Shown piece by piece: positions 35,267 to 62,638 of a stretch of DNA of 64,000 nucleotides. This stretch comes from a virus. The stretch's first letter is position 1. Each line of letters opens with the position of its first letter. The notes below the pieces were generated by a model, which saw nothing but the letters and a program-made list of their open reading frames with translations, did not search any database and was not told the DNA's origin. The DNA lies in IMG/VR virus record IMGVR_UViG_3300021963_000035, positions 64,001-128,000 of that record; one strand, given 5' to 3'. The position numbers were made by a program, and so were the translations under genes.

Positions 35267-35283
35267 ATTGGATAAATATTTGT

Positions 35284-40620: not shown

Positions 40621-40631
40621 CTAAATATAAT

Positions 40632-42953
40632 ATGGACTCACAAAAAAGCATTAGTACAGATTTATTTTTCAAGATACGCAGCCGTTTTCAAGGACTGAAG
40701 CTGGGCGAATCCGCCGGTGCTATAACTATCAATCCAGAAGACGCAGTTTTCTTTGATTTTGACTATCTAGATGAAGAGCAAGTATTAGGGCATGTTTCTA
40801 TAAGCCTAGCTGAACCAACATCTATGAAGGTGTATTTCAGCACAGGTATTGCGGAAAATATGAACCCTGTCCAAAAACAACGTTGGTATGATTTTCTTTA
40901 TGAACTAAGATTATTTGCCAAGAGAAGATTAATGAGCTTTGACACAAGAGATGTGGCCAAAGACAATCTCGATAAGCGAGATTTTGAATTTTTAAGTCAA
41001 TATAATAAACCAAAGCAGCCAGAGGAAAACGCTATGAATGAAAGCGCACTATACGGAACAAAGACCGTAAGCTATCAAAAATTAGAAGATACAAGACTGA
41101 TCATTAAGCATAGTCAAGCACTATCAGATGACATGCAGCCGGGAGCAAGGAGCAGAAATATTTCTGCACTTTTTGTCGAAAATTCAGAAGGCGAACGATT
41201 TAAATATCCTTTCATTCATTTAGCTGGTGCAAGAGCAATGCAACGACATGTAGCAAACGGTGGCGCACCGTACGATGCTATTGGAGAAAGTATTATTAAG
41301 ATGAGCGAAGAAATCGCTCAACTAAGAGGCTTTGGTAATTATGTTGTTAGAAACGATTTAATGAATTCTGATACAAATTCAATAGTAGAAAGAAGCACAG
41401 AGGCACTTAATAGATTAAGAGAACAGATCACCAAGCTGTCAAAACAGAGCCATTACGAGGCATATAGAGATTCTTTCCAGGCACAACAACCGATGGAAGT
41501 CCCACAAGATGTAGTAGAAGATTTTACAGAAAAATTTACAGTTAAAAACTTCAAAGAGGATATTAAGTCTGTATTCCCAGTGTTATATAGACTTATGAAG
41601 GAAGAATCCAAGCCCATAGGCTACGACGACATAGTCGCTTTAACAAATACACAAGAACAAAAAGTCGATGAAGAATCGGCTGTTCAAGATCCATTCGAAC
41701 AGTTTGAAGATTGGGTTTTAACCTTAGGCGAAGAAGCAATAGAAGAAAACGATACAGTAGTAGTAGAAGACTCAAAAGATCCAGATCATGAGTTCGAGGA
41801 AGTTGATTTAACTGTAGAAGTTTATTGGCAAACTGAACCGGAACTTAAGATTACTAGCGTAAAATTAGGAGATTCAGAGATACTTCCAGTAGTGTATCCC
41901 GAATATATCGAGCAAATGATTGAAGCGATACAATCAGGGGACATGACTGAGCAAGGATCAGAATTTGAAATGATCGAAAACGTTGGTGTTGACTACGAAT
42001 ACGAAGAAGCACAAAGAGGCTCAAGAGAAAGAGGTACAGGCTTACAGCTAGAACCAGATTATCCAGAATCATACACAATTACGGCTGCTTATATTTCACA
42101 AAATGGCAAGACTGTAGAAGTTGAGTTACCACAACATACTATCGATTGGATGGAAGAAAAGTTAGCAGATGACAACGCCGGCAGCGGATATGATGATTAC
42201 GATTACGATGATTATTATGATCGTAGAGGTGATTATGAAGAAGCTAGCGATCCTACACATCCAGAATATGACAAGGCCGATGATTATGATCTTCCTCCTA
42301 GCAAAAGAGGTAAAGGCACAGATCAATACAAGTTACCAGATTATGAAAAACACGATTCAAGACACAAGAGAGACTTCCAAAAACGTGCAGGCACATACAA
42401 AGATGAAAGTCTAGATCTAAAAGAAGTCGCAAGATTTATCTATAGTTTCTTTGACCGCGTCAATGAATCATTCCCTAAAGGCAATGAAGGTGTAGCCATA
42501 ATGGTTGGTAAAAAATTTGGTCCACGAGCAGAAATGATTGCACGTGAAATGATCGAAAGGCTAGCACCACAGCAAGATACAGCACATATGGTAACAGATT
42601 CTGGCGATAATCAAATGCAACCAGAAACATTAGAATCTTCAGATGTTAAAGAAGGTCCAATGTGGGATAAAATTAAAGGCATCGGATCAAAAATTTCTAG
42701 CTTTGCAGACAAGCATTTAAATGATCCTAACTATGCAAATCTAGACGATCCTAAAGTACAGCCAGTAGTGGGCAAAGACGGCTATGTAACACATTACGTT
42801 AAGAATGGTAAGGTAGTACATAGAGTTCCTCCAGGCCGTAAAACTCTTAGCGGAGCCCAATCTCAAAGAGACTGGGAAGCCAGAAAAGCACAGCGTCCAG
42901 CGTCTGAATCCAGTGATGAATTGGCAAGAATCAAATCTTTATCAGGCCTATAA
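40632..42953 (+). CDS. Large acidic protein (773 aa), probable head-internal/ejected protein
   Basis: Late box at 40622-40627. Folded N-terminal ~330 aa, acidic mosaic middle with many hydrophobic-x-E|S/A/G sites, C-terminal DELARIKSLSGL. Confidence 0.55.
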   Translation: MDSQKSISTDLFFKIRSRFQGLKLGESAGAITINPEDAVFFDFDYLDEEQVLGHVSISLAEPTSMKVYFSTGIAENMNPVQKQRWYDFLYELRLFAKRRLMSFDTRDVAKDNLDKRDFEFLSQYNKPKQPEENAMNESALYGTKTVSYQKLEDTRLIIKHSQALSDDMQPGARSRNISALFVENSEGERFKYPFIHLAGARAMQRHVANGGAPYDAIGESIIKMSEEIAQLRGFGNYVVRNDLMNSDTNSIVERSTEALNRLREQITKLSKQSHYEAYRDSFQAQQPMEVPQDVVEDFTEKFTVKNFKEDIKSVFPVLYRLMKEESKPIGYDDIVALTNTQEQKVDEESAVQDPFEQFEDWVLTLGEEAIEENDTVVVEDSKDPDHEFEEVDLTVEVYWQTEPELKITSVKLGDSEILPVVYPEYIEQMIEAIQSGDMTEQGSEFEMIENVGVDYEYEEAQRGSRERGTGLQLEPDYPESYTITAAYISQNGKTVEVELPQHTIDWMEEKLADDNAGSGYDDYDYDDYYDRRGDYEEASDPTHPEYDKADDYDLPPSKRGKGTDQYKLPDYEKHDSRHKRDFQKRAGTYKDESLDLKEVARFIYSFFDRVNESFPKGNEGVAIMVGKKFGPRAEMIAREMIERLAPQQDTAHMVTDSGDNQMQPETLESSDVKEGPMWDKIKGIGSKISSFADKHLNDPNYANLDDPKVQPVVGKDGYVTHYVKNGKVVHRVPPGRKTLSGAQSQRDWEARKAQRPASESSDELARIKSLSGL

Positions 42954-46193: not shown

Positions 46194-46432
46194 AAGAAGA
46201 CCTTATCGCCGATATCTGGAATTTGATGATCGAGCATATTCCAGAAAAATCTCGTAAAGACGTTGCTAGCGATTTTATCAATACTTTGTTAGATTATGGA
46301 ATCAAAGATTCTACTATCGAAAGTTTGTTAGGAATCGATCCATATCTCGACGACGCTATTAGTTATTCTATAGACGGAGAAGAGATCATGGATGAGTATG
46401 ATGATGACAACTATAACGAAGATGACGAATGA
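46190..46432 (+). CDS. Small acidic hypothetical protein
   Basis: 80-aa ORF coupled (ATGA) on both sides, between the recombinase and the UvsY-like gene. Confidence 0.7.
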   Translation: MKEDLIADIWNLMIEHIPEKSRKDVASDFINTLLDYGIKDSTIESLLGIDPYLDDAISYSIDGEEIMDEYDDDNYNEDDE

Positions 46433-46884
46433 GTTGGTACGAAAAAGTTTCTAAAGATATCTCTTACATTCCAGATGCTGTAGCATTCTATGAAAAAGAA
46501 TTGTTAGATGCAAAACTGGAATGTAAGATCTTTGGCAACATTGAAAAAGCGTCGGCAAATATGCCGGGTGTAGTAGAGAATCGTTTTAATCAATTACAAG
46601 AGATAGAAGCGATTCTTGAATACCTTAACATAGAATTACGTAGGCTAAAGAGCCAACATTTTCGCAAATATCTAGAAAACTATCAGAGGGCACTCAGTAG
46701 TAGAGATTGCGAAAAATTTGTTGACGGGGAAGCGGATGTCGTTGATTTTGAAAAGATTATTAACGAATTTGCATTACTTAGAAACAAATGGTTAGGTATT
46801 ATTAAATCATTAGATCAAAAACAATGGCATCTAACTAATATCATTAAACTGCGAATAGCAGGAATGGAAGACGCAACCATTTAA
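46429..46884 (+). CDS. uvsY: UvsY-like recombination mediator
   Basis: Helical ~150 aa; KY...Y..AL...D..K.VDG..D, IIK.L.QK.W...NIIKLR.AG; next to the recombinase. Confidence 0.75.
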   Translation: MSWYEKVSKDISYIPDAVAFYEKELLDAKLECKIFGNIEKASANMPGVVENRFNQLQEIEAILEYLNIELRRLKSQHFRKYLENYQRALSSRDCEKFVDGEADVVDFEKIINEFALLRNKWLGIIKSLDQKQWHLTNIIKLRIAGMEDATI

Positions 46885-46885
46885 C

Positions 46886-46908
46886 AAAGGTCCCCAGGGA
46901 CCTTTCTT
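46886..46908 (+). terminator. Terminator ending the recombination operon
   Basis: AAAGGTCC-CCAG-GGACCTTT-CTT. Confidence 0.8.
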
Positions 46909-46916
46909 TATAAATA
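46909..46916 (+). promoter_or_regulatory. Perfect T4-type late promoter TATAAATA at the head of the glycan island
   Basis: TATAAATA, 5 nt before ATG 46922. Confidence 0.8.
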
Positions 46917-46921
46917 TCGCT

Positions 46922-47665
46922 ATGAAAATAGTACTAGTAACAGGTGGGTTTGATCCACTTCATAGCGGCCACATCGAATACTTTAAAGCAGCAGCAAAAT
47001 TAGGAGATACTCTATTAGTCGGAGTAAACTCTGATGAATGGTTGCAACGTAAAAAGGGTGCAGCATTCATGCCTTGGGCCGAACGTGCTGAAATAATACG
47101 AAATCTAAAAATGGTAAGCGGTGTAATATCGTTCAATGACGACGATAATACTGCGATTGATGCTATATTAAAAGTAAGAGAAGTTTATTTCGGAGATACT
47201 ATTATCTTTGCCAACGGCGGAGATAGAACCAAAGACAACATACCTGAAATGGGGATAGCAGATCCTGATTTATTTTTTGCATTCGGAGTGGGTGGAGAAG
47301 ATAAAAGGAATTCTAGCAGTTGGATACTAAATGAATGGAAATCTCCTAAAACTGTAAGACCTTGGGGATATTATCGTGTGTTACATACTGTGGGACGAAA
47401 TGTAAAAGTTAAAGAATTAACAGTTGATCCTGGAAAATCTTTAAGTATGCAAAGACACAAGTATCGCACAGAATTATGGTTTGTAGCAGAGGGCGAAGCC
47501 GATACAAATTGGAATCCAGGCCATACTAAAATAAAAGAATTTAAGACTGAAGTTATTAGGGCTGGCGAATGGCATCAGTTACATAACACAACGGACGATC
47601 CATTAAAGATTATAGAAATACAATACGGCGAAGTCTGCGACGAGGAAGATATAGAAAGAAAATGA
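46922..47665 (+). CDS. Nucleotidyltransferase (HxGH, RfaE-II/TagD-like) fused to a mannose-6-P-isomerase-type cupin
   Basis: VTGGFDPLHSGH, GVNSDEWL.RKKG, ER..II, FANGGDR; C-terminal RPWG.Y.VL...VKEL.V.PG.SLS.Q.H...E.W.V. Confidence 0.88.
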   Translation: MKIVLVTGGFDPLHSGHIEYFKAAAKLGDTLLVGVNSDEWLQRKKGAAFMPWAERAEIIRNLKMVSGVISFNDDDNTAIDAILKVREVYFGDTIIFANGGDRTKDNIPEMGIADPDLFFAFGVGGEDKRNSSSWILNEWKSPKTVRPWGYYRVLHTVGRNVKVKELTVDPGKSLSMQRHKYRTELWFVAEGEADTNWNPGHTKIKEFKTEVIRAGEWHQLHNTTDDPLKIIEIQYGEVCDEEDIERK

Positions 47666-48348
47666 AAGACATAATTCCTATTTTTATCGGTTATGATCCG
47701 AGAGAAGCTATCGCTTATCATACATGTGCTAACAGCATTATTAGAAATTCAAGTAGGCCTGTTAGCATAGTTCCAGTAGCTCTAAATTTATTTAAAGACT
47801 ATACTGAGACACATACCGACGGTAGCAATCATTTTATCTATACAAGATTCCTTGTGCCTTGGATGATGAGTTGGGCTGGACATGCTATATTCATTGATGG
47901 AGACATGATAGTTAGAGGTGACATAGCAGAATTATGGGCATTAAGAGAAACAGGTAAAGATGTCCAGGTAGTCAAACACGATTACAAAACTAAAATGCCT
48001 GTGAAATATCTTGGAGCAAAGAATGAAGACTATCCTAGAAAAAATTGGTCTAGTGTTATTTTGTGGAATTGTAATAGCTTTCCTAACAGGAAACTTACCC
48101 CTGAATTTATCCAACAATCCAGCGGCAGTTTCCTCCACCGCTTCTCGTGGTTAGACGACGAGCGCATAGGTGAATTACCTAAAGAATGGAACTGGTTGCC
48201 AGACGAATATGGTCCTAATCCCGATGCTAAGTTATTGCATTATACTTTAGGTACTCCTTGCTTTCATGAATTCGCCAACACACCAATGGGTGACGAATGG
48301 CATCGTGAACGCATATTAACTGAATATTGTCAACAAAGAAATATATGA
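47662..48348 (+). CDS. GT-A glycosyltransferase (GT8-like)
   Basis: IFIGYD.RE, F.Y.RFLVP, FIDGDM (DxD), YPRKNWSSV.LWN, LP.EWNWL, LLHYTLG.P. Confidence 0.88.
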   Translation: MKDIIPIFIGYDPREAIAYHTCANSIIRNSSRPVSIVPVALNLFKDYTETHTDGSNHFIYTRFLVPWMMSWAGHAIFIDGDMIVRGDIAELWALRETGKDVQVVKHDYKTKMPVKYLGAKNEDYPRKNWSSVILWNCNSFPNRKLTPEFIQQSSGSFLHRFSWLDDERIGELPKEWNWLPDEYGPNPDAKLLHYTLGTPCFHEFANTPMGDEWHRERILTEYCQQRNI

Positions 48349-49145
48349 ATTGGATATTTCTAGATAACACAGAAAAATCACAATATGTAGAACTATTTGC
48401 AAAAAGTGCCGGGAAACTTATTACTCCTTACGAGAATTTTGTCTATGCGGATAGCAACGATCCGTTAGTTATCAGAGGAATTCTTAAAAATAAATTAATA
48501 AAACAATGTTGGAAAGACAATCGAACATTTTATTATTTTGATACTGGATATGTAGGCAACGACGTTTATCAATCTAATCCTAACGGTTACAAATACTGGC
48601 ATAGAATAGTTAAGAACGATCTGCAACACGGAAAAATAATTCCTAGACCAGACGATCGCTGGCGAAAACTAAACAAAACAATTAAGCCCTGGAAACGATC
48701 AGGCAGCAGAATAATAATAGCTGCACCGGACGAAAAACCCTGTAAGTTCTACGGAATAGAACTAGAGCAATGGTTAACAAACTTAGTCGACGAGTTAAAA
48801 AAATATACCGATCGTTCTATTGTAGTACGTCGCCGTCCTGCTAATAGAATGGACAGAAAACAAAATATCCCTTTAGTTCAAGAATTAGAAAATGATGTTC
48901 ACGCATTGATTACATTTAATAGTATTGCTGCAACTGAAGCAATAATAAATGGCATTCCCGCATTTACTCTTGCACCCACAAATGCTGCTAGTCCTGTTAG
49001 TTTACAAGATATAAGTAGTATAGAGAATCCGTACTATGCTGACCCCGAAAAAGTGTATGCTTGGGCCTGTCATCTAGCCTACGGACAATTTCATACTGAA
49101 GAATTGAAAAACGGTACGGCATTAAACATTTTATATAATGACTAG
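48345..49145 (+). CDS. KpsS/KpsC-like (capsule-synthesis type) glycosyltransferase, paralog 1
   Basis: YYFDTGY, IVVRRRP, FNSIAATEAIINGIP, YGQF..EEL..G. Start ATG 48345 is coupled to the upstream stop. Confidence 0.7.
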   Translation: MNWIFLDNTEKSQYVELFAKSAGKLITPYENFVYADSNDPLVIRGILKNKLIKQCWKDNRTFYYFDTGYVGNDVYQSNPNGYKYWHRIVKNDLQHGKIIPRPDDRWRKLNKTIKPWKRSGSRIIIAAPDEKPCKFYGIELEQWLTNLVDELKKYTDRSIVVRRRPANRMDRKQNIPLVQELENDVHALITFNSIAATEAIINGIPAFTLAPTNAASPVSLQDISSIENPYYADPEKVYAWACHLAYGQFHTEELKNGTALNILYND

Positions 49146-50085
49146 CATAGCAGTATATCACAAATCTGTCCCTAATGGTAAGAATCAAGAAAAAATTGAT
49201 ATCTTGAGATTCTTCTCTCTCGGAGCAAAAGTTAAAGGTGAGGCTGTGATAGACGTTGACAGTTATACTTTACAAAATCCCGAGGTTGCTGTTATACAGG
49301 GTTGGGTAGCAGATGATCAGCCATTGACTCCGCACGGAGATCTTAGAGCACGAGTTATTAAACATCAACTACAATGGAACAAATATGTCGTAGGAGTTGA
49401 CAGCAATCTATTTTTGTATGCTAACACAGAAAATCCTTTACATTATCTAAGATATAGTTTCAACGGAATATTTCCAACAACTGGAATATATTGTGACGAT
49501 CAACCAAATCCAGATAGATGGAAATCTATCAAACAAGATTTAAATTTAGAATTAAAAGACTATAGAACATCGGGCAATCATATATTATTGTGTATGCAGC
49601 GCAATGGCGGGTGGAGCATGCAAGGCCTTGATAATCAAGAGTGGGCTATTAAAACTATCGCAGAAATAAGAAAATATACAGATAGGCCAATAGTGGTAAG
49701 ACTGCATCCAGGAGATAAAGAAACTAAAAGAATTGTTAAATCAGGTGGTCCTCTTTGTAAAATAAAATTTGATTACGGAGTTATTCTAAGCCAGAATGAT
49801 AATCTTTTAGACGATCTTAAAGGGTGTTGGGCAGCAGTCAATCATAATTCTAGTCCTGTAGTAGGTGCAGCAATTGAAGGCTATCCTATCTTTGTAACTG
49901 ATCCTAATAACAGTCAATGCAAAGACATAGCCAATATCAATTTAGCCTATATTGAAAAACCGAGATTACCTGATAGACAAGCCTGGGTCGAACGTATATC
50001 AATGTTCCATTGGAAGTTCGACGAACTTAAATCTGGTGAGTGTTGGGAACACATGAAGAAATATGTTAAATTGAATTATGATTGA
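49138..50085 (+). CDS. KpsS/KpsC-like glycosyltransferase, paralog 2
   Basis: ILLCMQ, RPIVVRLHP, HNSSP.V.AAIEGYP, HW.FDEL.SG. Confidence 0.7.
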   Translation: MTSIAVYHKSVPNGKNQEKIDILRFFSLGAKVKGEAVIDVDSYTLQNPEVAVIQGWVADDQPLTPHGDLRARVIKHQLQWNKYVVGVDSNLFLYANTENPLHYLRYSFNGIFPTTGIYCDDQPNPDRWKSIKQDLNLELKDYRTSGNHILLCMQRNGGWSMQGLDNQEWAIKTIAEIRKYTDRPIVVRLHPGDKETKRIVKSGGPLCKIKFDYGVILSQNDNLLDDLKGCWAAVNHNSSPVVGAAIEGYPIFVTDPNNSQCKDIANINLAYIEKPRLPDRQAWVERISMFHWKFDELKSGECWEHMKKYVKLNYD

Positions 50086-50887
50086 TATACAGATTTTAAA
50101 GCAAGAAGAACAGGAATGGTATCACATTTATAATAACAATTATCGTGTGACTGTAATTGATGATTGGAAAAATGTTTCTACAGATGTGCCAGTAGTTTGC
50201 ACCGGTAATCTTTTGTACGATAATGTTCAGCATTGGTTAACAAAACATCAGCCTGCTGTCTACTTTGCTAGAGGTTATGTAGGCAATCATTTGTACAAAC
50301 ACAAAAAATTTTGGAGATATTCTATCAATGGTTGGGCTAATACCAGACTATCAAACATTCCTTATTCTAGGTGGAATGTACTAGGATTAGAAAGACATCC
50401 CTGGAAAGTTAAAGATGTAAAAAAAGTATTAATTGCTCCTAGTAAAATGACTGCAAGAATATGGACTCCGGAACTTGATACTCTGTGGCCAGAATCTATG
50501 TTAGATAAATTTCCAGGGGCAGAAGTTAGAATTAGAAGAAAAGAGCACAGACCTTGGTTAAGATGGAGCACTTTGTGGGATGACCTAGACTGGGCCGATC
50601 TTGTAGTATCCCAGAGCTCTGCCATAACAGCTGAAGCATTTTGGTATGGAAAGAAGGTCATCAGTTTAGAACCGTGTCCTACTTGGGCTGCAAAAAAATT
50701 TACTTTAGAAGACTGGCAAGATCCTAAAGAACCAGAACTCAGAGATCAATGGCACGAACATCTTGCTTGGTGTCAGTATACTGTAGATGAAATAGAATCC
50801 GGTTCAGTATTAGATCTTTTACAATTGTATTTTGGTAATTTGACTAATTATAAGTCCAAACAAAAGTATAATTTAATTAGAAATTAA
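50078..50887 (+). CDS. KpsS/KpsC-like glycosyltransferase, paralog 3
   Basis: YFARGY, VLIAP, VRIRRK, SQSSAITAEAFWYGKK, CQY.VDEI.SG. Confidence 0.65.
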   Translation: MIDIQILKQEEQEWYHIYNNNYRVTVIDDWKNVSTDVPVVCTGNLLYDNVQHWLTKHQPAVYFARGYVGNHLYKHKKFWRYSINGWANTRLSNIPYSRWNVLGLERHPWKVKDVKKVLIAPSKMTARIWTPELDTLWPESMLDKFPGAEVRIRRKEHRPWLRWSTLWDDLDWADLVVSQSSAITAEAFWYGKKVISLEPCPTWAAKKFTLEDWQDPKEPELRDQWHEHLAWCQYTVDEIESGSVLDLLQLYFGNLTNYKSKQKYNLIRN

Positions 50888-51459
50888 TTCTTTTCTAAAT
50901 AGAAGACATGCTCAATATTATATTGAGTTGCCGTTTTTAAATCAAACTCAGTTTTATATTTTATATCGGGAAATTCTGAAATAATATTTAAAACTTCCGC
51001 TAATGGTAACGAAATATCAACCATGTTCTTTCCGGTATTACACCAGTTTTCATAAACTTTAATAATTTTTTCTTCTTCAAGGAATGGAGTAAAAATTGTC
51101 AACACTGCTCTCTTATTAAAACTTTTTAAAACATTTCTTAAGATAGGTCTCCACTCTTGATTATGTTCTAATACATGTCGTATGTGTATGGCATCCACAG
51201 ATGTAGTGTAAGTAACTAAATCTTCAATTTTATCAACAAACACAGATTCAGATCCGTCGACCCCAACATATGTTTGATGTTCTGCTACATATTTCTTAAA
51301 TCCGCCAAACCCACATCCCCAATCTTCGATAGTTAAAATATCTTTTTGATTGAGCCACTTGCTGGCTAGATCTGCTGTATGTGGGTCTGAATATATTTTT
51401 CTTTTAGTTCTGCCTTTATAATATTCATTCCATAGTCCTACTTTAGATTCTGTATTCAT
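50884..51459 (-). CDS. Class I SAM-dependent methyltransferase
   Basis: IEDWGCGFGG (motif I), YVGVD, RHVLEH. Confidence 0.8.
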   Translation of the reverse strand: MNTESKVGLWNEYYKGRTKRKIYSDPHTADLASKWLNQKDILTIEDWGCGFGGFKKYVAEHQTYVGVDGSESVFVDKIEDLVTYTTSVDAIHIRHVLEHNQEWRPILRNVLKSFNKRAVLTIFTPFLEEEKIIKVYENWCNTGKNMVDISLPLAEVLNIISEFPDIKYKTEFDLKTATQYNIEHVFYLEKN

Positions 51460-52979
51460 TTTTTTACCCTTAATAAATCTTCTATTGTGTATAATTTTTT
51501 CATAAACTTTGAAGGATCAGATAATACGCTAACCTCTAAATCTCCTTCTCTCCTTGGACCAACTTCGACATCGAAATCTGCATCATTTACTTCTTTAAAT
51601 ATATCAACCATTTGTCGCACACTGGTACCAACTCCGTGGCCTAAGTTTTCAATTCTATTTGTAGACTTGTCAACTCCCCTAATGACTGCGTGACATATTT
51701 CATTTACGTGCGTGTAATCTCTGATGCAAGTACCATCTTCAGTATTATAATCATCACCAAATATTGTAAATTTCCCAGAGTCAATCGCAGCTATTAGGCT
51801 AGCAAACAGTCCGTCTGGATTTGTTGGATTTATTCCGTCGGCTCCAGTAACATTGTAAAATCTAAAAATAGTAAAAGGAATTTTATGATTCTTACAATAC
51901 TCAAAAACAATGTCCTCCATTGCACGTTTACTAATACCGTATGGACTACCTAGTCCTGCTGCTGCTCCGGTAGAAGCAATCACTAATCTTTTTGTTTTTA
52001 TTTTATTAAGAACATTTAATGTTCCGATAGTATTAGTTTGATAGTATAGTGTTGGAGTTATAACACTTCGTCCTACAGCAACTTCTGCTGCAAGATGAAT
52101 TACACAATCAAAAGTTTCTGTAATATTCCAGTCAGTATCTTCTGTAATGTTTTGTTTATAAAATTTATCCACAGGCAACAAAGGATCTTGTTTATCTAAT
52201 CCGTATACAATCCAATCCCGATCTCTTTCAATCATTTGACAAAGATGACTACCGATGTATCCAGAATTACCTGTGATCAAAACCTTTTTTGCTCGGTCAT
52301 TTCCCCAGAAGTTATTCTTACCTCGTACTAGAGATTTTTTTCCGTCTTCGCCAATTAAAGCACGACCCATTATATGACTATGTACTTGTATTTTTACAAT
52401 TAGTGCTGTTATAGCATTGTCGGATGGTAGCCAAGTTTCTTTGTACATGTCAACTAACTTCTTTGCTGCCGCAGGAGTGATTGCATATCCTGGAGTACCT
52501 GGCATAGATCCTTGCCAATATTCTTCTGCACGTGGTTCACCGGTTGGATTGTCAAGATAATGCCAATATTTTGCTGCTTTAGTTTGATTTCCAAAAACAG
52601 TTATTAACACTTCTTCAAATTCTACGTCCTCATATGGCCTAGTAAAAATTACATCGTCCTCTAATATCATTATAGGTTCGTTTAGTTCTATGCATTTTTC
52701 CCAAAGTCTATAATGACTGTCAAAGCAGCCCATTTCACCAGGATTTTGTTGGTCATCTCTAAACTCTTCAGTAAAAGGATTCAGGGGCCCGTTTTTAAAA
52801 TTCCAAGGATGATACCTGCGACCAGTTTCCTGATATCTTTTCTTTGTTTCGTCTCCATACGATCCCTCAAATAGTTCTGCATCCATTCCATATTCGTCAA
52901 GGGCTTCTTTGACTTTGAGTGCAGTGTCTAAAGAAGGTTTTATCTTAGACAAACAAATTATAAACGCTTTCATTTCCAA
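51456..52979 (-). CDS. GT25-like glycosyltransferase fused to a GalE-like NAD-dependent epimerase
   Basis: N-terminal AFII.L, GE.GC..SH..LW, ILEDDV, GYAI.P.AA.KL; C-terminal ITGNSGYIG, HLAA, YGISK, FRFYNV.G, DGTCIRDY.HV. Confidence 0.88.
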   Translation of the reverse strand: MEMKAFIICLSKIKPSLDTALKVKEALDEYGMDAELFEGSYGDETKKRYQETGRRYHPWNFKNGPLNPFTEEFRDDQQNPGEMGCFDSHYRLWEKCIELNEPIMILEDDVIFTRPYEDVEFEEVLITVFGNQTKAAKYWHYLDNPTGEPRAEEYWQGSMPGTPGYAITPAAAKKLVDMYKETWLPSDNAITALIVKIQVHSHIMGRALIGEDGKKSLVRGKNNFWGNDRAKKVLITGNSGYIGSHLCQMIERDRDWIVYGLDKQDPLLPVDKFYKQNITEDTDWNITETFDCVIHLAAEVAVGRSVITPTLYYQTNTIGTLNVLNKIKTKRLVIASTGAAAGLGSPYGISKRAMEDIVFEYCKNHKIPFTIFRFYNVTGADGINPTNPDGLFASLIAAIDSGKFTIFGDDYNTEDGTCIRDYTHVNEICHAVIRGVDKSTNRIENLGHGVGTSVRQMVDIFKEVNDADFDVEVGPRREGDLEVSVLSDPSKFMKKLYTIEDLLRVKK

Positions 52980-53779
52980 TAATCCTCTGTTCTGTTGATT
53001 TTTAAATCTGATCTTTTACTCTTACCTAACATTTTTCTATCGCCTTTGAGGTGATCAAGGTAAGCACCCCAGGCACTGTTAATCAATGGATGACCTTCAC
53101 CTGTTATTATTCCTTCACTCCAGTTAAGTTGTTCTAGAAACGGAAATTTTACTCGAACAGAATCAAAAACAAAACTGTCGTGCCACTCATCTAGTAAAAA
53201 TATTCCTGCTTCTGCACGGTCATACATTCTCTGGAACTCATTGAGGAAATTTCTAGTCATTTCTGATCTTAAATTTAAGGAGTATAGACCGCATTCACTA
53301 TATTTGCCCTGACGTCCTAAATAACATAGGTCATAATTGTTAGGTATTAGATTTTCTATCTGTTCTAAGGTAATAGGGCTGTGACATACAGTGTCAGCAT
53401 CCATCCATATTAAAATATCTGCGTCAGTTGTTTTTGCACAATGGAAAATTGCATAAACTTTATGTGCAAATCTTACAGCATCCCACTTGAAAGGCTTATG
53501 ACTGTCCTTCCTAGCGGCCAATCGGGGAAAACTTGATATATCTCCGTTGGCGTGTGGAATATTTTTCCATTTATCTTTAAATGCTATTAGATCTGGCACA
53601 CTGGTTCTCATGTCAGTTAGCGTGATCTGCGTATGATCTGGTACTGCTGGATTTGTATCTTCGGGGTATAGATGTAATGTTACTTCCTTGGGCCAATTTT
53701 TACAAAAACTGTCAATCATACGCTGGCCATATGCTTTTAATCCCTTATCGTTAAACGTTGTTACCACAGCGTATTTCAT
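52970..53779 (-). CDS. GT-A glycosyltransferase
   Basis: VVTTF, WDAVRFAHKVYA, IWMDAD (DxD), ECG, EWHDSFVFD, DHLKG.RK. Confidence 0.8.
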   Translation of the reverse strand: MKYAVVTTFNDKGLKAYGQRMIDSFCKNWPKEVTLHLYPEDTNPAVPDHTQITLTDMRTSVPDLIAFKDKWKNIPHANGDISSFPRLAARKDSHKPFKWDAVRFAHKVYAIFHCAKTTDADILIWMDADTVCHSPITLEQIENLIPNNYDLCYLGRQGKYSECGLYSLNLRSEMTRNFLNEFQRMYDRAEAGIFLLDEWHDSFVFDSVRVKFPFLEQLNWSEGIITGEGHPLINSAWGAYLDHLKGDRKMLGKSKRSDLKINRTEDYWK

Positions 53780-54174
53780 CGTTTGATCCTATATATGTAA
53801 AGAGTGTCTCTAGTTTCAGCTAACTCGTAATGATTTTTTTCTAATGCTCGATTTATCTTCTTAGAAGGTATGTCTTGCGAAACAACTATTATCGGAGTCG
53901 AGTTTTTATGGGCCATAGGTATAAAATTTCCAATTTCACAATGATACTTTTCTTCAACTACGATAAGATTTATAAAAGGTAGCAATTTTGTGTCGTCAAA
54001 TCTTAATTTAGGAATAAGATTTTTTCTTTTAACTGAACATCCGTCCGGGTCATAAACAAAAACATTTTGAAAATCGGATAAAAGATCTTCTAATGCAAAA
54101 AATTCGCTACCTAGCACCACAGCATTGTCTACTCTAGTGAGATATGAAGATAACCGTTTAACAAATTTACTCAT
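53776..54174 (-). CDS. Hypothetical protein, possibly a degenerate Rossmann/methyltransferase-like fold
   Basis: NAVVLGS...VFVYD strand pattern; first gene of the minus-strand glycan operon. Confidence 0.5.
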   Translation of the reverse strand: MSKFVKRLSSYLTRVDNAVVLGSEFFALEDLLSDFQNVFVYDPDGCSVKRKNLIPKLRFDDTKLLPFINLIVVEEKYHCEIGNFIPMAHKNSTPIIVVSQDIPSKKINRALEKNHYELAETRDTLYIYRIKR

Positions 54175-54185
54175 CTTTTAAGAAT

Positions 54186-54203
54186 TAAATACTGTGTTAT
54201 TTA
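54186..54203. promoter_or_regulatory. Interleaved divergent late boxes
   Basis: TAAATA on + at 54186-54191 and on - at 54198-54203, in a 41-nt gap. Confidence 0.6.
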
Positions 54204-54215
54204 TTTGAAGGTAAA

Positions 54216-55049
54216 ATGAAGGTCAAGCTATATAGACAGCACGGTGCCCTTGGTAGCAAAGAAGTTTACGATGCTGTTGAACAAGGGCTTAGATATCTTG
54301 GACACGAAATCGTCGAAGAAAATGAAGATTTGCCAGTGATCTGGAGTGTGTTGTGGCACGGAAGAATGCAACCAAATCAACACATACATTACATTTCGAG
54401 AAAAAATAATAAACCGGTAATGATAATTGAAGTGGGCAGTCTTAAAAGAGGTACCACGTGGCGCATTAGTCTTAACAACATTACTAGAGATGGAATTTTC
54501 CCTCAAATTTTGGACTTTGATAAAAACAGAGACAAAAAACTAGGAGTGTTCCTCAAAGATTTTAGAGAAAAAAGAAAAGACACAATTTTGTTGTTAGGTC
54601 AACACGACAAGAGTCTTCAATGGAATGGACTGCCTCCGATAAAAAATTGGATCGAAGAAAAAATCCAAGAAATTAGGAAATTTTCTGACCGTAAAATTGT
54701 TGTAAGGCCTCATCCTAGATGTTTCATACCTCAGTTGAATATCAAAAATGTAGAAATTGAAAATGTTCGACCTTTACCTAATACCTATTCTGAATTTGAT
54801 ATAACATTTGATCATCATTGTGTAATAAACTATAACAGTAACACCACAGTACAGGCAGCAATAGCAGGAGCACCTATTATTTGTGATCAAACTGGAATGG
54901 CATTCCCCGTTAGCAACAGATTAGACACCATTGAAGATATCAAAAATATAGATAGGGCCGAATGGTTTGAAAAAATTGTCCATACCGAATGGACATTAGA
55001 CGAATTAACCCAAGGCGATCCTATAAAAAACTTGATTTCTCTTGCTTAA
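54216..55049 (+). CDS. KpsS/KpsC-like glycosyltransferase, paralog 4
   Basis: IIEVG.L.R, ILLLGQ..KS.Q, IVVRPHP, YNSNTTVQAAIAGAP, TEW.LDEL..G. Confidence 0.72.
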   Translation: MKVKLYRQHGALGSKEVYDAVEQGLRYLGHEIVEENEDLPVIWSVLWHGRMQPNQHIHYISRKNNKPVMIIEVGSLKRGTTWRISLNNITRDGIFPQILDFDKNRDKKLGVFLKDFREKRKDTILLLGQHDKSLQWNGLPPIKNWIEEKIQEIRKFSDRKIVVRPHPRCFIPQLNIKNVEIENVRPLPNTYSEFDITFDHHCVINYNSNTTVQAAIAGAPIICDQTGMAFPVSNRLDTIEDIKNIDRAEWFEKIVHTEWTLDELTQGDPIKNLISLA

Positions 55050-55060
55050 TATGTTAGAAT
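55032..55060 (+). promoter_or_regulatory. Sigma70 extended -10 promoter
   Basis: TTGATT-N17-TAGAAT with a TG extension; ATG 55067 follows the -10 box after a 6-nt spacer. Confidence 0.65.
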
Positions 55061-55066
55061 ATATCA

Positions 55067-56263
55067 ATGAGAAATTCTGCCTACATCGAAGATATCTTTT
55101 TAGACTTTGCTCTGCTAACAATGACTGGGGCTGTAAACATACAGCCTCAAGATTCGTCACCTGTTAGTAGTTTTGAAAATGCTATAGTCCAATCTAAGAA
55201 ATTAACGCAAGCACAGGCCAATTACATTTTAAAATTATTGACAAAATATAAATTTTCTGCGTTTCGTGCAGGATTAGATTATGACCAACATCTAAAAAAT
55301 CCACAATGGAAAACCCCGTTTAGAGTATTGGACACTGCCAAGCGAATTTCTGTGGTAGAAACAGTCGATGGTGTTCAAATTTTAATAAAATTTCCATACA
55401 ATCTTAAAGAGACATTTGACAAGGCATTCCCAGACCTTTCATCATCTTGGGACTCAGATGCCGGTGTTAGAAAGATAGATGTCAATGATTGCAATGTTGT
55501 AGCACTAGCTGAATTTTGCCTCGAAAATGGCATAGAAGTTGACCAAACTTTTTCAGATTTACTATTACAGATTGAAGAAATTTGGAATCAAGAAAAAAAT
55601 ATTATTCCGCAATCTAAAATTTTAAATGATCAGGTTGTACTGATTAATGCTGATGAATATTGTCAAACATACTTTGATGAGCGTAAAAAAGATAAGGTAA
55701 ATTTTGACCTATTTTTGGCAAAATCTATGGGATTTTTACTCAGTGATATATCGGCACCGTCAAACACATTTGAGAAGATAGCGACCAGTCCGACAAATAT
55801 TTTCTGGGTAAAAGAAAATAAAACATTTTTTGATATCTACAAAAATTTAGAAGATAGTAAGATTGTATTTTTATTAGATCGTAACTGTGACTACTGCGAA
55901 GAGGCAAAAAAATTCGTAATTTCTGCGATGGAAAACGGCGTAGACAAATCAGATATTCGTGTTTGTTTTAGGCTCGATACTGAAGAAGAAAGAAAAAGGA
56001 ATTTTAATAGTTGGGTCAAAGAGCAAGGTGTTAGTGGCGGTGTTGATGATGGTAAAATTTTCATATTTTTACATAAACCAGCTAAATGGTTGTTTTCTAA
56101 AAAGGTAGATGTTAAAATAATAGCTACAAATTCACTGTGGCCTAATACTACATTAGGCATTGTGAACTGGATCGAAAGTCATCCTTGTGCTGTTTACTTA
56201 GGGGATCATCGACCTTCACTAAAAACTAAAACAAAAAAGGAAAAAGGCGTTGTCGACTTGTAA
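55067..56263 (+). CDS. Hypothetical protein (398 aa) heading the helicase operon
   Basis: Long ORF with its own promoter, overlapping the helicase start; no motif recognised. Confidence 0.75.
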   Translation: MRNSAYIEDIFLDFALLTMTGAVNIQPQDSSPVSSFENAIVQSKKLTQAQANYILKLLTKYKFSAFRAGLDYDQHLKNPQWKTPFRVLDTAKRISVVETVDGVQILIKFPYNLKETFDKAFPDLSSSWDSDAGVRKIDVNDCNVVALAEFCLENGIEVDQTFSDLLLQIEEIWNQEKNIIPQSKILNDQVVLINADEYCQTYFDERKKDKVNFDLFLAKSMGFLLSDISAPSNTFEKIATSPTNIFWVKENKTFFDIYKNLEDSKIVFLLDRNCDYCEEAKKFVISAMENGVDKSDIRVCFRLDTEEERKRNFNSWVKEQGVSGGVDDGKIFIFLHKPAKWLFSKKVDVKIIATNSLWPNTTLGIVNWIESHPCAVYLGDHRPSLKTKTKKEKGVVDL

Positions 56264-57707
56264 ATTAATCATTAAAGATGAAGTAAACATCAAAGCTGAA
56301 GGACTTGATTTAGAAACTAGGAGAAAACTGGTCAATAAATTTAAGTATACAGTCCCTTGGGCTAGACATCAGCCTTCATACAAACTAGGAAGATGGGATG
56401 GCACAGTAAGTTACTTTGGTCTAGGCGGAAACGGTTACTGTTCTCAACTGAATGAGATCGTCGAAATCATAACATCCAGTGGTTATGAAATAGATGTTGA
56501 AGATCTCCGAACACCATTTGATCTTTCGTTTAACGAGATACTGCCTACCTATTGGGCCGACCGTGGCAAGGTATGGCCAGAAGGTCATAGATTTGCCGGT
56601 CAGCCTATTGTGTTACGTGATGACCAAACTGAAGTTGTTAATACTTTCTTAAAAAATCCACAATCATTGCAAGAAGTCGCTACTGGTGCAGGCAAAACTA
56701 TTATGACTGCAACATTGGCACATATCTGTGAAAAGTTCGGACGTACAATCATTATTGTCCCCAATAAGGACTTAGTAACACAGACAGAAGAAGATTTTGT
56801 TAACGTAGACTTAGATGTAGGTGTTTATTACGGTGATAGAAAAATGCTGAATAAAACACACACAATCTGTACCTGGCAAAGTCTAAACATATTAGATAAG
56901 AAATCATTCGACGATGATGATGCGTTAACACTGGCAGAGTTTTTAGATGGGGTACAGACTGTAATAGTAGACGAAGTACACATGGCCAAGGCAGATGTGC
57001 TGAAAAGATTATTAACACAGAACATTTGTAATGCACCTATAAGATGGGGCCTCACTGGTACTATTCCTAAAGAAGATTGGGAGTTTCAATCTATTCGTGC
57101 TTCACTGGGAGAAGTTGTTGGTCAAGTCACTGCTCATCAATTACAACAGCAAGGAATACTGGCACAATGCCATGTTAATATACTACAAACTGTAGAGATA
57201 AAAGTTTTTAGAACATATCACGAAGAATTGAAATATTTGGTCACTGATGAAGATCGAGTCAAATGGATCTCCAGTCTAATTAAGACTGTCGCAGAGAGTG
57301 GAAACACTCTTGTGCTGATAGATCGATTAGAAACAGGAAATATGTTAATGGACATGATCGATGAAGCAGTGTTTATCAGCGGTGCTGTAAAATCAACAAA
57401 ACGAAAGGAAAAATATCGTGAAGTTGCGACGAGTGATGACAAGATTATTGTGGCGACTTATGGTGTGGCCGCTGTGGGTATTAATATCCCTAGGATTTTT
57501 AATCTGGTTCTTGTGGAGCCCGGAAAAAGCTTTACTAGGGTTATACAATCAATTGGGCGAGGTATTAGAAAAGCGGACGACAAAGACTTCGTCCAGATCT
57601 GGGACCTAACAGGAGGTACAAAATATGCTAAGAAACACCTCACTGAAAGAAAAAAATTCTACAAGGATGCCCAATATCCTTTTAGTATAACAAAGGTAAC
57701 TATATGA
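56250..57707 (+). CDS. uvsW: SF2 helicase, UvsW-like
   Basis: LRDDQ, ATGAGKT, IVPN..LV.Q, VDEVH, GLTGT, ATYGVAAVGINIP, QSIGRGIR. Confidence 0.92.
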   Translation: MSTCKLIIKDEVNIKAEGLDLETRRKLVNKFKYTVPWARHQPSYKLGRWDGTVSYFGLGGNGYCSQLNEIVEIITSSGYEIDVEDLRTPFDLSFNEILPTYWADRGKVWPEGHRFAGQPIVLRDDQTEVVNTFLKNPQSLQEVATGAGKTIMTATLAHICEKFGRTIIIVPNKDLVTQTEEDFVNVDLDVGVYYGDRKMLNKTHTICTWQSLNILDKKSFDDDDALTLAEFLDGVQTVIVDEVHMAKADVLKRLLTQNICNAPIRWGLTGTIPKEDWEFQSIRASLGEVVGQVTAHQLQQQGILAQCHVNILQTVEIKVFRTYHEELKYLVTDEDRVKWISSLIKTVAESGNTLVLIDRLETGNMLMDMIDEAVFISGAVKSTKRKEKYREVATSDDKIIVATYGVAAVGINIPRIFNLVLVEPGKSFTRVIQSIGRGIRKADDKDFVQIWDLTGGTKYAKKHLTERKKFYKDAQYPFSITKVTI

Positions 57708-60812: not shown

Positions 60813-60838
60813 CTTATAAATATACTTAAAGGACCAAT

Positions 60839-61615
60839 ATGCAATTAAATCCAAGTTATTTATACTCAAACAAAATGGACGTCTTTAGCACACTTGGTAC
60901 CTGGACTACTGAGAGGTATCGAAAAGTGTATCAACGTAACTTTAAAGTGTATCGTGGCGTCGACAACCGCTTAGATTTCCAAATACGCAACTCGGATCAA
61001 AAACCACAGGATATGACTGGGTATTCTGTGATATTTAATCTTTTTACAAGAGAGAGTCAAGAATTGGTGACTGTTAGGACTTGTGAAGTACAAAGTTATA
61101 GCGGTGGAAAATTCTATGTGATTCTTAGCGAAGCAGACGTTCAAAATTTAGACACAGGGTATTATACTTTTAGTCTACATGCATTAGACTCAAATGGATT
61201 AAAAACAGCATTGTATGGCGACAGCCAATACGGTGCAACAGGAACTATTGATATTGTTGGCAGCACATATGCAGAACCAATTGATAGTTTATCTGTATCT
61301 ACATTTTCTTTATACGAATCTATCGTGCCTCCAGAAACTTACAGAGTAAGCGAAGTGTTAGATGCAAAACCACAATTTAATTCTAATGCTGCACTGCATA
61401 CGTTTGCTATGTACGGTAAGAACTTTGTTGGTGTTGCGACTGTGCAAGGAAGTTTAGATCCTTACAATTCAATCACAAATTGGATAGATTTAGCAACTAT
61501 TAATTTTAATTCAGATCCTATAAAATATCAAAATATCGAAGGTGTATGGAGTTATTTTAGAATCAAGCTAGATGTAACTTCGGGATCACTTGACAAAGTA
61601 TTGTATAGATATTAA
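60839..61615 (+). CDS. Putative late structural protein (Ig-like / BppU-like beta domains)
   Basis: TATAAATA at 60815-60822 plus SD; YRGVDN.L.F...N.DQKP, all-beta pattern, LDKVLYR C-terminus. Confidence 0.6.
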   Translation: MQLNPSYLYSNKMDVFSTLGTWTTERYRKVYQRNFKVYRGVDNRLDFQIRNSDQKPQDMTGYSVIFNLFTRESQELVTVRTCEVQSYSGGKFYVILSEADVQNLDTGYYTFSLHALDSNGLKTALYGDSQYGATGTIDIVGSTYAEPIDSLSVSTFSLYESIVPPETYRVSEVLDAKPQFNSNAALHTFAMYGKNFVGVATVQGSLDPYNSITNWIDLATINFNSDPIKYQNIEGVWSYFRIKLDVTSGSLDKVLYRY

Positions 61616-61618
61616 AAT
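61590..61618 (+). promoter_or_regulatory. Sigma70 promoter for primase
   Basis: TTGACA-N17-TAAAAT; ATG 61625 follows the -10 box after a 6-nt spacer. Confidence 0.75.
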
Positions 61619-61624
61619 TAGTCT

Positions 61625-62638
61625 ATGGCCTTAGTCATAGACATCTTACGAGATCTTATCCCATATAAGCGAAAAACTACTCCTAGTGGTTGGACTAGTT
61701 TTGATGCCCCTTGCTGTCATCACAGAGGTCACAATCGTGACACTAAGATGAGGGCTGGCATAATGCTGAACAATGAATTTGTATATCACTGCTTCAATTG
61801 CGGATTTGCAACAGGTTGGAGTCCAGGTAACTCGATATCTCCAAAACTTAGAGATCTATGCAAATGGTTAGGTGCATCAGACGACGATGTTAAACGATTA
61901 ATTTTTGAAGCACTGAAAACTGAAGGCGATAATTACGTTGCTAAAGAACGAGAAATATCAGTAGACTTTCCGCCAAAAGATTTACCAGAATCATCTATGC
62001 CAATATCTAAATGGCTAGAAACGTATGACGACATGACGTCTGAATTTTTAAATCCTGTAATAGAATATCTGATCAATAGAGGTTGTAATCCATTAAGTAA
62101 TCATTTCTATTGGTCACCTGCAGAAGGTTATAGTGATCGTGTGATTATCCCTTTTAAGTATCAAGGAAGGATAGTAGGTAGTACAGGAAGAAAGATCACT
62201 AAAGGTAAACCAAAATATCTTTCTGATCAACATCCTAATTTCGTCTTTAATGTAGATGAACAATTAGATGACAGCAAATACGTATTTGTTGTTGAAGGTC
62301 CGTTTGATGCCTTAGCAATTGGAGGAGTTGCCCTATTAAGTAATAATATATCAGAGCAACAGGCTAAGATAATTAATAGGCTACACAAACATGTGATCGT
62401 CATACCTGATCAGGATAAAGCTGGTCTAGATGTAATAGACAAGGCTAGAGATCTTGGTTGGTCTGTAGCGTTTCCTACTTGGGATAGCGATGTTAAAGAT
62501 TGTTCCGATGCTGTTAATCGATACGGAAAATTGTTTGTAATAATGGATCTTATCAAGACTGCAACAGAAGGATCTATAAAAATAAATCTCGCCAAAGGTC
62601 ATATGAAAAGAAGGCTACAAAATGCGCAAACTAATTAG
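61625..62638 (+). CDS. DNA primase (Zn ribbon + TOPRIM), T4 gp61-like
   Basis: PCC...YHCFNCG, YL..RG, RVIIP, GR, KYL, VVEGPFDA, IPDQDKAG, KD..DA. Confidence 0.92.
   Translation: MALVIDILRDLIPYKRKTTPSGWTSFDAPCCHHRGHNRDTKMRAGIMLNNEFVYHCFNCGFATGWSPGNSISPKLRDLCKWLGASDDDVKRLIFEALKTEGDNYVAKEREISVDFPPKDLPESSMPISKWLETYDDMTSEFLNPVIEYLINRGCNPLSNHFYWSPAEGYSDRVIIPFKYQGRIVGSTGRKITKGKPKYLSDQHPNFVFNVDEQLDDSKYVFVVEGPFDALAIGGVALLSNNISEQQAKIINRLHKHVIVIPDQDKAGLDVIDKARDLGWSVAFPTWDSDVKDCSDAVNRYGKLFVIMDLIKTATEGSIKINLAKGHMKRRLQNAQTN

Follow-up and report, generated by a model that had tools for sequence, protein, structure and literature searches.

A conserved late-type glycan-assembly insertion in PA5oct-related jumbo phages carries a new glycosyltransferase family

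The window analysed here is a 64,000-nucleotide stretch (bases 64001-128000) of a 148.6-kb IMG/VR virus contig, labelled G000, with a CheckV completeness of 42%. Within it, between a uvsY-like gene and a UvsW-type helicase gene, lies a block of 11 genes (46909-56263), designated g1 to g11 in order of position (Table 1) and referred to below as the island. Analysis of this block and its relatives identified a conserved late-type glycan-assembly insertion with a new glycosyltransferase (GT) family. Its gene content and promoters suggest that the phages carrying it probably build a variable glycan of their own late in infection.

The large terminase of the contig was 54% identical to that of the Pseudomonas jumbo phage PA5oct, and among the other products of the window are a contractile sheath, a tube, very large fibres and proteins like gp32, UvsX and UvsY. 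This gene content places the source among the jumbo myoviruses of the T4 superfamily in its wider sense, as an uncultured relative of PA5oct. A megablast search of the island against 50,697 phage records gave no match, and relatives were found at the protein level only. The published 'moraphage' (PMC12619734) belongs to another lineage. The relatives referred to individually are G001, which carries the island and is complete (364 kb, CheckV completeness 100%), and G002, G003 and G004.

Comparison with PAC2, a PA5oct-like phage, indicated how the block came to its present position. In PAC2, uvsW begins 12 nt after uvsY, with neither the island nor g11 between them, and the stop codon of uvsY is overlapped by a TTAAATA sequence that lies 9 nt ahead of the ATG of uvsW. 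Judged by this uninterrupted junction and its box, the block is an 11-gene insertion at the ancestral uvsY/uvsW junction, made at a pre-existing late promoter. An earlier, sequence-only reading of the region had described an island of ten genes; all ten are present, but the inserted block includes an eleventh, g11.

The position of the insertion is fixed, while its content is not. A scan of IMG/VR with g4 retrieved at least 40 related loci at 48-75% identity. Both flanks were present in 24 of these, and in 24/24 the island lay between uvsY and the helicase, with a span of 7.5-17.2 kb. The core consisted of g1, g2, g3, g4, g8, usually g10, and a g11-like gene of ~390 aa. The variable part comprised g5, g6, g7 and g9, with 137 further open reading frames (ORFs) that fell into 81 clusters and 52 families and were concentrated at two places, the uvsY/g1 junction and the convergent g4/g8 junction. 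Among these accessory ORFs were sugar-nucleotide genes (GDP-mannose 4,6-dehydratase, RmlD-like reductases, UDP-sugar dehydrogenases of the Ugd type and PglF-type dehydratases) and transferases (FkbM and other methyltransferases, pyruvyltransferases, sulfotransferases, GT17, GT25, GT8, GT2 and GT7). As judged from its Pfam assignments, this accessory content is that of classic glycan diversification. In metagenomes, the g4 orthologue formed hundreds of clusters at 90% identity, unannotated throughout, and the wider g4 family accounted for 4,926 of 1.8 billion representatives (E <= 0.001).

Membrane proteins were absent from the island. With a Kyte-Doolittle threshold of 1.6 for a membrane segment, no island protein (n = 11) rose above 1.3 over 19 residues. 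No polytopic membrane protein was found in the accessory set either, where 3/81 clusters were marginal, with scores of 1.62-1.85. Initiating phosphoglycosyltransferases, flippases, polymerases and ABC exporters were not found among the 25 most frequent of the 51 accessory Pfam families. The sequence-only reading had taken the region for a cytoplasmic, multi-enzyme glycan-assembly locus. This was borne out by the enzyme families and by the lack of any membrane or export component, and the absence of a transporter, flippase or membrane anchor held both here and in 23 related islands.

The most distinctive genes of the island are g3, g4, g5 and g10, which are distant paralogues of one another (blastp, 1e-8 to 1e-15). 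An AlphaFold2 (AF2) model of g4, with a predicted local distance difference test (pLDDT) score of 93, was closest to transferases of 3-deoxy-D-manno-octulosonate (Kdo). The top 15 VIA rows were KpsC, WbbB and KrkA (Z 13.1-14.9, ~250 residues aligned at a root-mean-square deviation of 3.7-4.7 A); the next fold class, generic GT-B, reached Z <= 10.8. The top Foldseek matches were likewise KpsC, WbbB and KrkA, and the family profile matched WbbB at E 0.002 over the segment (K/R)XHP...NS..EA..G. Retaining beta-Kdo transferases carry two motifs: QXXXD, in which the absolutely conserved Asp acts as covalent nucleophile, and (K/R)XHP, which binds cytidine monophosphate (CMP) (PMC12887879). In the g4 group, the Gln was present in 31/31 sequences, Gly stood at Q+4 in 31/31, and R-x-H-P was invariant. 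The g10 group had the Gln in 23/23, Ser at Q+4 in 23/23, and an invariant R-P-H-P. The distance from Q to H was 36-37 residues in g4 and g10, compared with 37 in WbbB and 38 in KrkA; the equivalence of the motifs is based on this spacing to HP and on the hidden Markov model alignment of the adjacent segment, not on residue-level structural superposition. At the same two places, the g3 group had P-[DS]-E-K-P and R-x-[RK]-[AP], and the g5 group S-K-x-T-x and R-x-K-x. The Q, D and H are all missing from both types, although R188, S238, G248, W283, E296 and G300 are retained.

The QXXXD Asp is absent from all four paralogues, and their filing in GT99, GT107 or GT140 was rejected on this ground. 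Nor did any of them match PF05159 (Capsule_synth) or another curated family at E <= 0.01 in Pfam, NCBIfam or PHROG. The earlier description of four 'KpsS/KpsC-like' GTs was therefore right as to the fold (Z 13-15) but not as to family membership. Because the Asp is lost while the fold and, in two members, the CMP motif are kept, the models point to a shared fold with a different mechanism, and g4 and g10 probably have the nucleotide site in common with Kdo transferases, but not the catalytic mechanism. On this modelling evidence, the four paralogues are a new, unnamed GT family with the Kdo-transferase (modified GT-B) fold. They share that fold with KpsC/KpsS (GT107), the WbbB N-domain (GT99) and KrkA (GT140), and g4 and g10 also share the R-x-H-P and the Gln; they differ in being single-module proteins of ~270-315 aa, encoded by phages and without the nucleophile Asp. 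Among models of viral structures, the best matches after the first entry included four proteins of the algal giant virus TetV-1. A KdsB/NeuA-type CMP-ulosonic-acid synthetase (CTP_transf_3, E 2.8e-26) is encoded by G004 (L058, G004:C1:7243-7794), ~3 kb past the helicase of the related locus L040; no CTP_transf_3 synthetase was found in the window's contig or in G001.

The ten ORFs and the domains that the sequence-only reading had listed for them were verified with Pfam, PHROG, NCBIfam and structure models. The proposed nucleotidyltransferase-cupin fusion is g1, with matches to both PF01467 and PF01050. Its N-terminal domain (CTP_transf_like) resembles RfaE domain II, matches to TIGR02199 and TIGR01479 were below the cut-offs, and orthologues occur in nearly all related loci. 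The GT8-like enzyme is g2, which scored 34.1 bits against PF01501 (cut-off 24.3), yet covered only profile positions 61-134, and which was 38-89% identical in relatives. The GT25-GalE fusion, g7, exceeded the curated Pfam cut-offs with both domains (PF01755, 70.6 bits; PF01370, 114.4 bits). Against TIGR01179 (galE) it scored E 6e-49 and 166.7 bits, under the equivalog cut-off of 262.3, and for this reason no substrate was assigned to the epimerase. Close orthologues of g7 were present on only two other contigs.

The further DxD enzyme of the GT-A class is g8. Modelled from 24 orthologues (AF2, pLDDT 94.6), it had an invariant DAD motif and a retaining-type GT-A fold, and its top Foldseek matches were GT6 alpha-1,3-GalT/ABO enzymes and the GT8 glycogenin. 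A sequence search of PDB gave no match, with g8 alone or with the 24-sequence profile. Assignment of g8 to GT2 was rejected, as PF00535 scored 22.8 bits, below the cut-off of 23.3, and the fold was nearer to retaining GT6/GT8. The S-adenosylmethionine (SAM)-dependent methyltransferase, g6, gave weak class-I matches (Methyltransf_12 and Methyltransf_23, E 2-3e-5, under the Pfam cut-offs), and no orthologue was found in the fetched related loci at E <= 1e-5. The one ORF that had been left unassigned, g9, remained without a match in Pfam, PHROG or NCBIfam, as did g3, g4, g5, g10 and also g11; orthologues of g9 (22-44% identity) were present in a few loci. For g11, an Atlas search returned viral hypothetical clusters only and the model was poor (predicted template modelling score, pTM, 0.33), but relatives have a gene of ~390 aa at the same position. 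Translation of g3 most likely starts at ATG 48345 and that of g7 at ATG 52973. Each start overlaps the stop codon upstream of it as ATGA, an arrangement suggestive of translational coupling.

Table 1. Features of the island and its flanks (positions in the window; aa, amino acids)
Feature	Position	Strand	Evidence or remark
uvsY-like recombination mediator, left flank	46429..46884	+	phrog_231 E 8e-17
8-bp GC-rich hairpin, possible leaky terminator of the recombination operon	46886..46905	+	-11.8 kcal/mol, z = -2.57
Late-type box TATAAATA, core TAAATA 46911-46916	46909..46916	+	5 nt before g1 ATG, essentially leaderless
g1, HxGH nucleotidyltransferase-PMI-type cupin fusion, core	46922..47665	+	PF01467 E 5e-14, PF01050 E 6e-24
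g2, GT8-like GT-A with DGD motif, core	47662..48348	+	PF01501, phrog_28018 E 6e-37
g3, Kdo-transferase-fold paralogue A, no Q or HP motif, core	48345..49145	+	Paralogy, motif counts
g4, Kdo-transferase-fold paralogue B; Q154, G158, R-x-H-P invariant; core	49138..50085	+	AF2 model, VIA
g5, Kdo-transferase-fold paralogue C, no Q or HP, variable	50078..50887	+	Paralogy, motif counts
g6, small SAM-dependent methyltransferase, motif EDWGCGFG, variable	50884..51459	-	Weak Pfam matches
g7, GT25 + GalE-type NDP-sugar 4-epimerase fusion, variable	51456..52973	-	PF01755 E 2e-19, PF01370 E 7e-33
g8, retaining-type GT-A, D127-A-D129 invariant, core	52970..53779	-	AF2 model, Foldseek
g9, 132 aa, no family match, variable	53776..54174	-	Pfam, PHROG, NCBIfam searched
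Late box TAAATA, feeds g10-g11-uvsW	54186..54191	+	24 nt before g10; kept in 12 related loci
Late box ATAAATA	54198..54203	-	23 nt before g9; faces the + box, predicted starts cross
g10, Kdo-transferase-fold paralogue D; Q-x-x-x-S, R-P-H-P invariant; core in most relatives	54216..55049	+	
g11, 398-aa virus-only protein, no family match, in inserted block, co-transcribed with g10 + uvsW	55067..56263	+	
UvsW-type SF2 helicase, right flank	56250..57707	+	ResIII, DEAD, Helicase_C; PAC2 syntenic gene 'DNA helicase UvsW'

All three transcription units of the island start at late-type boxes, at the positions that the sequence-only reading had given: TATAAATA at 46909-46916, and TAAATA at 54186 (+) and 54203-54198 (-). 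The full T4 octamer TATAAATA was rejected as the unit of evidence, being under-represented (3 copies in the window, compared with 7.8 expected; 4 copies in the genome). The core TAAATA was more informative. The genome holds 85 copies, compared with ~250 for hexamers of similar composition, and 28/85 were intergenic, in 4.2% of the genome (binomial P = 5e-18); shuffled intergenic sequence gave 9.8 +/- 2.9 copies, with a maximum of 18. Among all 64 A/T-only hexamers, TAAATA was the most intergenic-enriched in the genome, and 23 of the 28 intergenic copies were correctly oriented and <=50 nt from a start codon. Boxes of this type precede virion genes, namely those for the sheath (31135), the tube (35273), fibres (4851, 7162 and 19286) and a structural protein (40622). 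A gp55-like late sigma factor is encoded at G000:47939-48766 (T4 gp55, E 1.9e-6; phrog_12791, 'sigma factor for late transcription', E 2.5e-82), with matches also in G001 and G002.

The boxes were also kept in relatives. Upstream of g1 orthologues, 23 distinct sequences had TAAATA in 19 cases and TAAGTA in 3, and in related contigs the box was mostly 4-7 nt ahead of the g1 start, with no box upstream of the internal genes g2 and g4. An opposed pair, TAAATA...TATTTA, was retained between g8/g9 and g10. Together with the sigma factor and the genome-wide statistics, this conservation argues strongly, at the level of sequence, for a gp55-type late regulon with the core TAAATA, and we accept that assignment. 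Expression of the island late in infection is accordingly predicted with good, if not full, confidence.

Late timing does not by itself point to virion morphogenesis. The sequence-only reading had argued that late boxes mark morphogenesis genes, and hence that the virion rather than DNA is most plausibly the target, with sigma70 promoters serving the replication genes. One such promoter, TTGACA-17-CATAAT, does lie ahead of the gp32-like gene, but the primase-subunit operon stands behind a late-type box. There, a hypothetical gene of 258 aa and a Toprim primase-subunit gene (60815-62638) lie behind a perfect TATAAATA at 60815 that is followed by a Shine-Dalgarno sequence, so that a replication gene in this phage appears to have a late-type promoter. 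The box at 54186 was likewise rejected as specific to the island, since it also serves uvsW. In T4, uvsW is itself a late gene. With boxes before both a UvsW-type helicase and the primase operon, 'late' is therefore not 'morphogenesis' in this phage, and that argument fell. The terminator said to separate the island from the recombination operon was supported in part: the hairpin is present and folds, but its U-tract is weak (CUUUAU) and a consensus terminator scan made no call there.

The layout of boxes and operons showed some further features. At 35273-35286 (tail tube), 40622-40634 (a 773-aa structural gene) and 46911-46924 (g1), only 4-5 nt separated the end of the late box from the ATG and a Shine-Dalgarno sequence was missing, and the same arrangement was seen at G000 positions 59518 and 132355; other late genes had a leader of 18-48 nt with GGAG. 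If the start site lies ~6 nt past the box, as in T4, the box-adjacent mRNAs would be leaderless. Opposed late boxes stood 6-34 nt apart at 54186-54203 and 60815-60864, with the predicted divergent transcripts beginning within each other's promoter, and RNA polymerase at one box would be expected to exclude polymerase from its partner. The g1-g5 and g9-g6 operons converge with stop codons that overlap by 4 nt (50884-50887) and with no terminator between them, and their late transcripts are predicted to read into each other as antisense RNA.

These features suggest how the glycan might be made. The island would supply soluble enzymes only, and, with three operons firing at gp55-type late boxes, these would accumulate in the cytoplasm as virions assemble. 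The donors would be host nucleotide sugars, together with one sugar activated by g1 and one epimerised by g7. Three GT-A enzymes, g2 (GT8-like), the GT25 part of g7, and g8 (GT6/GT8-like), with the four Kdo-fold paralogues beside them, would add sugars singly to give a short, branched glycan with O-methyl groups on part of it, without recourse to a lipid carrier, a flippase or an exporter. The core genes (g1, g2, g3, g4, g8, usually g10, and g11) would make the inner glycan. Tailoring genes would be swapped at the two recombination hot spots, and related phages would therefore carry different glycans.

The acceptor is most likely a surface-exposed virion protein (a fibre, a tail decoration or a capsid decoration), although we put this forward tentatively: virion glycosylation is the leading reading, and only narrowly so. 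It is favoured by the predicted co-expression with structural genes late in infection, by the all-cytoplasmic design, and by a hypervariable periphery on a fixed core. It is also favoured by the CcrColossus homologue gp128, whose GT cluster has tail genes on one side and the lysis cassette on the other, by the TetV-1 proteins among the viral structure matches, and by the absence of known DNA-acceptor routes from the complete relative G001. A good deal weighs on the other side. No direct link between the enzymes and a virion protein was found, and the island sits in the recombination/replication module, outside the structural module; the nearest virion gene (40632-42953) is 3.9 kb upstream, and recombination genes intervene. 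The late boxes are not specific to morphogenesis here (uvsW, primase-subunit operon), and the timing is inferred from sequence only. All recognisable families of the island (RfaE-like, GT8, GT25, Kdo-transferase fold and GalE) are typical of the synthesis of lipopolysaccharide (LPS), lipooligosaccharide (LOS) or capsule, whose enzymes are likewise soluble or peripheral. The fibres are indeed rich in Ser and Thr, as had been noted (21-23% Ser+Thr, compared with a genome mean of 12.7%), but such richness is common in fibres and is weak evidence. A second locus, L050, lies beside the fibre/baseplate block and is by position the better candidate for fibre glycosylation. Possibly, and here we are more reserved, the clade carries a serotype-like glycan locus, in which a late soluble core that includes an Asp-less Kdo/sialyl-transferase-fold branch (3-4 paralogues) is combined with tailoring cassettes that are freely swapped (for methyl, pyruvyl and sulfate groups and for deoxy- and uronic sugars) to give a strain-specific virion coat.

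The typical functions of these enzyme families bring the host envelope into consideration as a target, although a somewhat unlikely one. The soluble enzymes would then work on the cytoplasmic side of the inner membrane and modify lipid-linked precursors of the host, namely lipid A-core, O-units on undecaprenyl-PP or the Kdo-lipid primer of a capsule, and host MsbA, Wzx or an ABC transporter would export the product; the remodelled envelope would mask or change the receptor, sparing progeny from debris and from already infected cells. The repertoire fits LPS, LOS and capsule well, with an RfaE-domain-II-like protein, GT8, GT25 ('LPS biosynthesis protein'), GalE and the KpsC/WbbB/KrkA fold, and the bacterial counterparts also lack membrane spans. 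Large T4-like cyanophages have similar sets of GTs, epimerases, TagD and KdsA/B, which their authors took to alter the cell surface (PMC12801897). One GT of the CcrColossus cluster is of 'family 9' (heptosyltransferase-type), and hypervariability would follow the O-antigen diversity of hosts. However, expression from late boxes would leave little time for export and display before lysis, and exclusion functions are usually early. No initiating phosphoglycosyltransferase, ligase, or acyl- or lipid-handling protein was found in 23 islands, as judged from the hydrophobicity scan and the 25 most frequent accessory Pfam families. The g4-type fold family is also multi-paralogue in the algal giant virus TetV-1, where host LPS cannot be the target, and the core is kept across phages of 47-75% protein identity, probably with different hosts.

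Modification of DNA is an unlikely target by our estimate, although the island is embedded among genes of DNA metabolism (gp32-like, uvsX, uvsY, uvsW and primase). The enzymes would put a multi-sugar chain on a modified base of replicated DNA before packaging, as protection from nucleases. There is published precedent. Phage clusters with LPS-like GTs and a cytidylyltransferase put mono- to trisaccharides, heptose and Kdo included, on 5-hydroxymethylcytosine (10.1101/2023.12.21.572611). Polyarabinosylated 5-hydroxycytosine occurs in RB69 and DLP3, and DNA sugar hypermodification is commonly late and pre-packaging (PMC13326640); on that account, late timing does not exclude DNA. The DNA of PA5oct itself is resistant to several restriction enzymes (10.1101/2025.03.31.646159). 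Against this, the ThyA family (PF00303), which would provide a hydroxymethylase or hydroxylase, and C5-cytosine methyltransferases (C5-MT, PF00145) were absent from G000, G001, G002 and G003, the complete 364-kb relative thus included, with positive controls. A search for TET/JBP (PF12851) was silent, as were its control genomes, and a search for a TGT/DpdA homologue found none. The GT-B paralogues matched Kdo transferases, and the T4 beta-GT was not among the matches listed. Finally, the sulfo-, pyruvyl- and many O-methyl-transferases of related islands are typical of polysaccharides and glycoproteins, and sulfation or pyruvylation is, to our knowledge, not known as a tailoring of DNA glycans. 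Very unlikely, in our judgement, is an acceptor of another kind, such as a protein that is not part of the virion, a small molecule or an oligosaccharide in free form (serving, for example, as decoy or osmolyte, or being a host protein so modified), or the variant in which g4 and g10 have g3 and g5 as partners without catalytic activity. The latter would fit their lack of the Q and HP motifs with retention of their own invariant residues, and g9 and g11, for which no fold or family is known, could serve as acceptors or adaptors. We know of no phage precedent for such an acceptor, however, and hypervariable tailoring genes around a conserved core are the mark of a surface structure that is exposed and under selection.

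Virion glycosylation by soluble enzymes has a counterpart in giant viruses. In the chlorovirus PBCV-1 and in mimivirus, soluble cytoplasmic GTs, sugar-nucleotide enzymes and sugar methyltransferases make an atypical glycan on virion proteins, independently of the host ER and Golgi and of lipid carriers, and the glycan varies between strains. Those are eukaryotic giant viruses in which virion glycosylation has been demonstrated, whereas here it is proposed from genes, and the likeness is drawn at the level of design; TetV-1, an algal giant virus, encodes several paralogous fold relatives of g4. Mycobacteriophages, as phages of Actinobacteria, are said to have systems of one to few GTs in or beside the structural operon, and these GTs, expressed with late genes, reportedly glycosylate capsid and tail-tube subunits (attributed to Freeman et al. 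2023). In contrast, the island has 7-8 GTs, lies in the recombination module of a Gram-negative-type jumbo myovirus and does not adjoin a structural operon.

With the DNA-hypermodification clusters (Pyle et al., 10.1101/2023.12.21.572611; Lee et al. 2026, PMC13326640), the island shares sequential GTs, an epimerase, a cytidylyltransferase and LPS-like ancestry, and those clusters also give multi-sugar products and act late, after replication. They are defined, however, by a ThyA homologue, or a C5-MT with 5mYOX, that makes the hydroxyl acceptor, and neither ThyA nor C5-MT was found here or in the complete relative. The cyanophages P-SSM2, S-SCSM1 and S-SCSM2R (PMC12801897) also belong to the T4 superfamily and carry clusters of GT2, GT25 and GT11 enzymes with epimerases and a cytidylyltransferase of the TagD type. 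Two g4-family homologues are present in the Pelagibacter phage Mosig, amid methyltransferase, GT and sulfotransferase genes. The genomic position, core gene set and phage lineage of those islands differ, and they are not known as clade-wide, fixed-locus islands with a conserved late promoter. Phage GT islands are already known; the Asp-less paralogue family is new.

Three features elsewhere in the contig are recorded. The locus L050 (G000:C1:4707-15086), a second putative glycan locus, has no paralogue of island genes and encodes a UDP-glucose/GDP-mannose dehydrogenase (Ugd), a weak radical-SAM protein and eight ORFs without a Pfam or PHROG match. A NodU/CmcH-family carbamoyltransferase (window 62732-64000, to G000:128189; Carbam_trans_N E 9e-44, Carbam_trans_C E 7e-29) sits 6.5 kb downstream of the island and could be a further sugar-tailoring or base-modifying enzyme. 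The uvsX gene is a single ORF of 368 aa in the window, compared with pieces around a Hef-like homing endonuclease in the PAC2 annotation (L057, 1664-6498).

GT clusters are common in large phages, and the target is known for almost none. The island is a tractable case, as it occupies one fixed locus across a metagenomically abundant clade, has a split into core and variable genes and a defined promoter class, and encodes soluble, expressible enzymes. Were the virion the target, variable glycan coats would exist on tailed phages whose hosts are of the Gram-negative type, with consequences for adsorption, grazing, antibody recognition and particle stability. A serotype-like coat, if confirmed, would parallel in phages the O-antigen loci of bacteria and the capsid glycans of chloroviruses. 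Should DNA be the target, glycan hypermodification would take place on an acceptor chemistry not yet known. Whichever the target, the four paralogues define a new GT family with the fold of CMP-Kdo transferases, in which the CMP motif is kept in two members and the aspartate of covalent catalysis is lost in all four.

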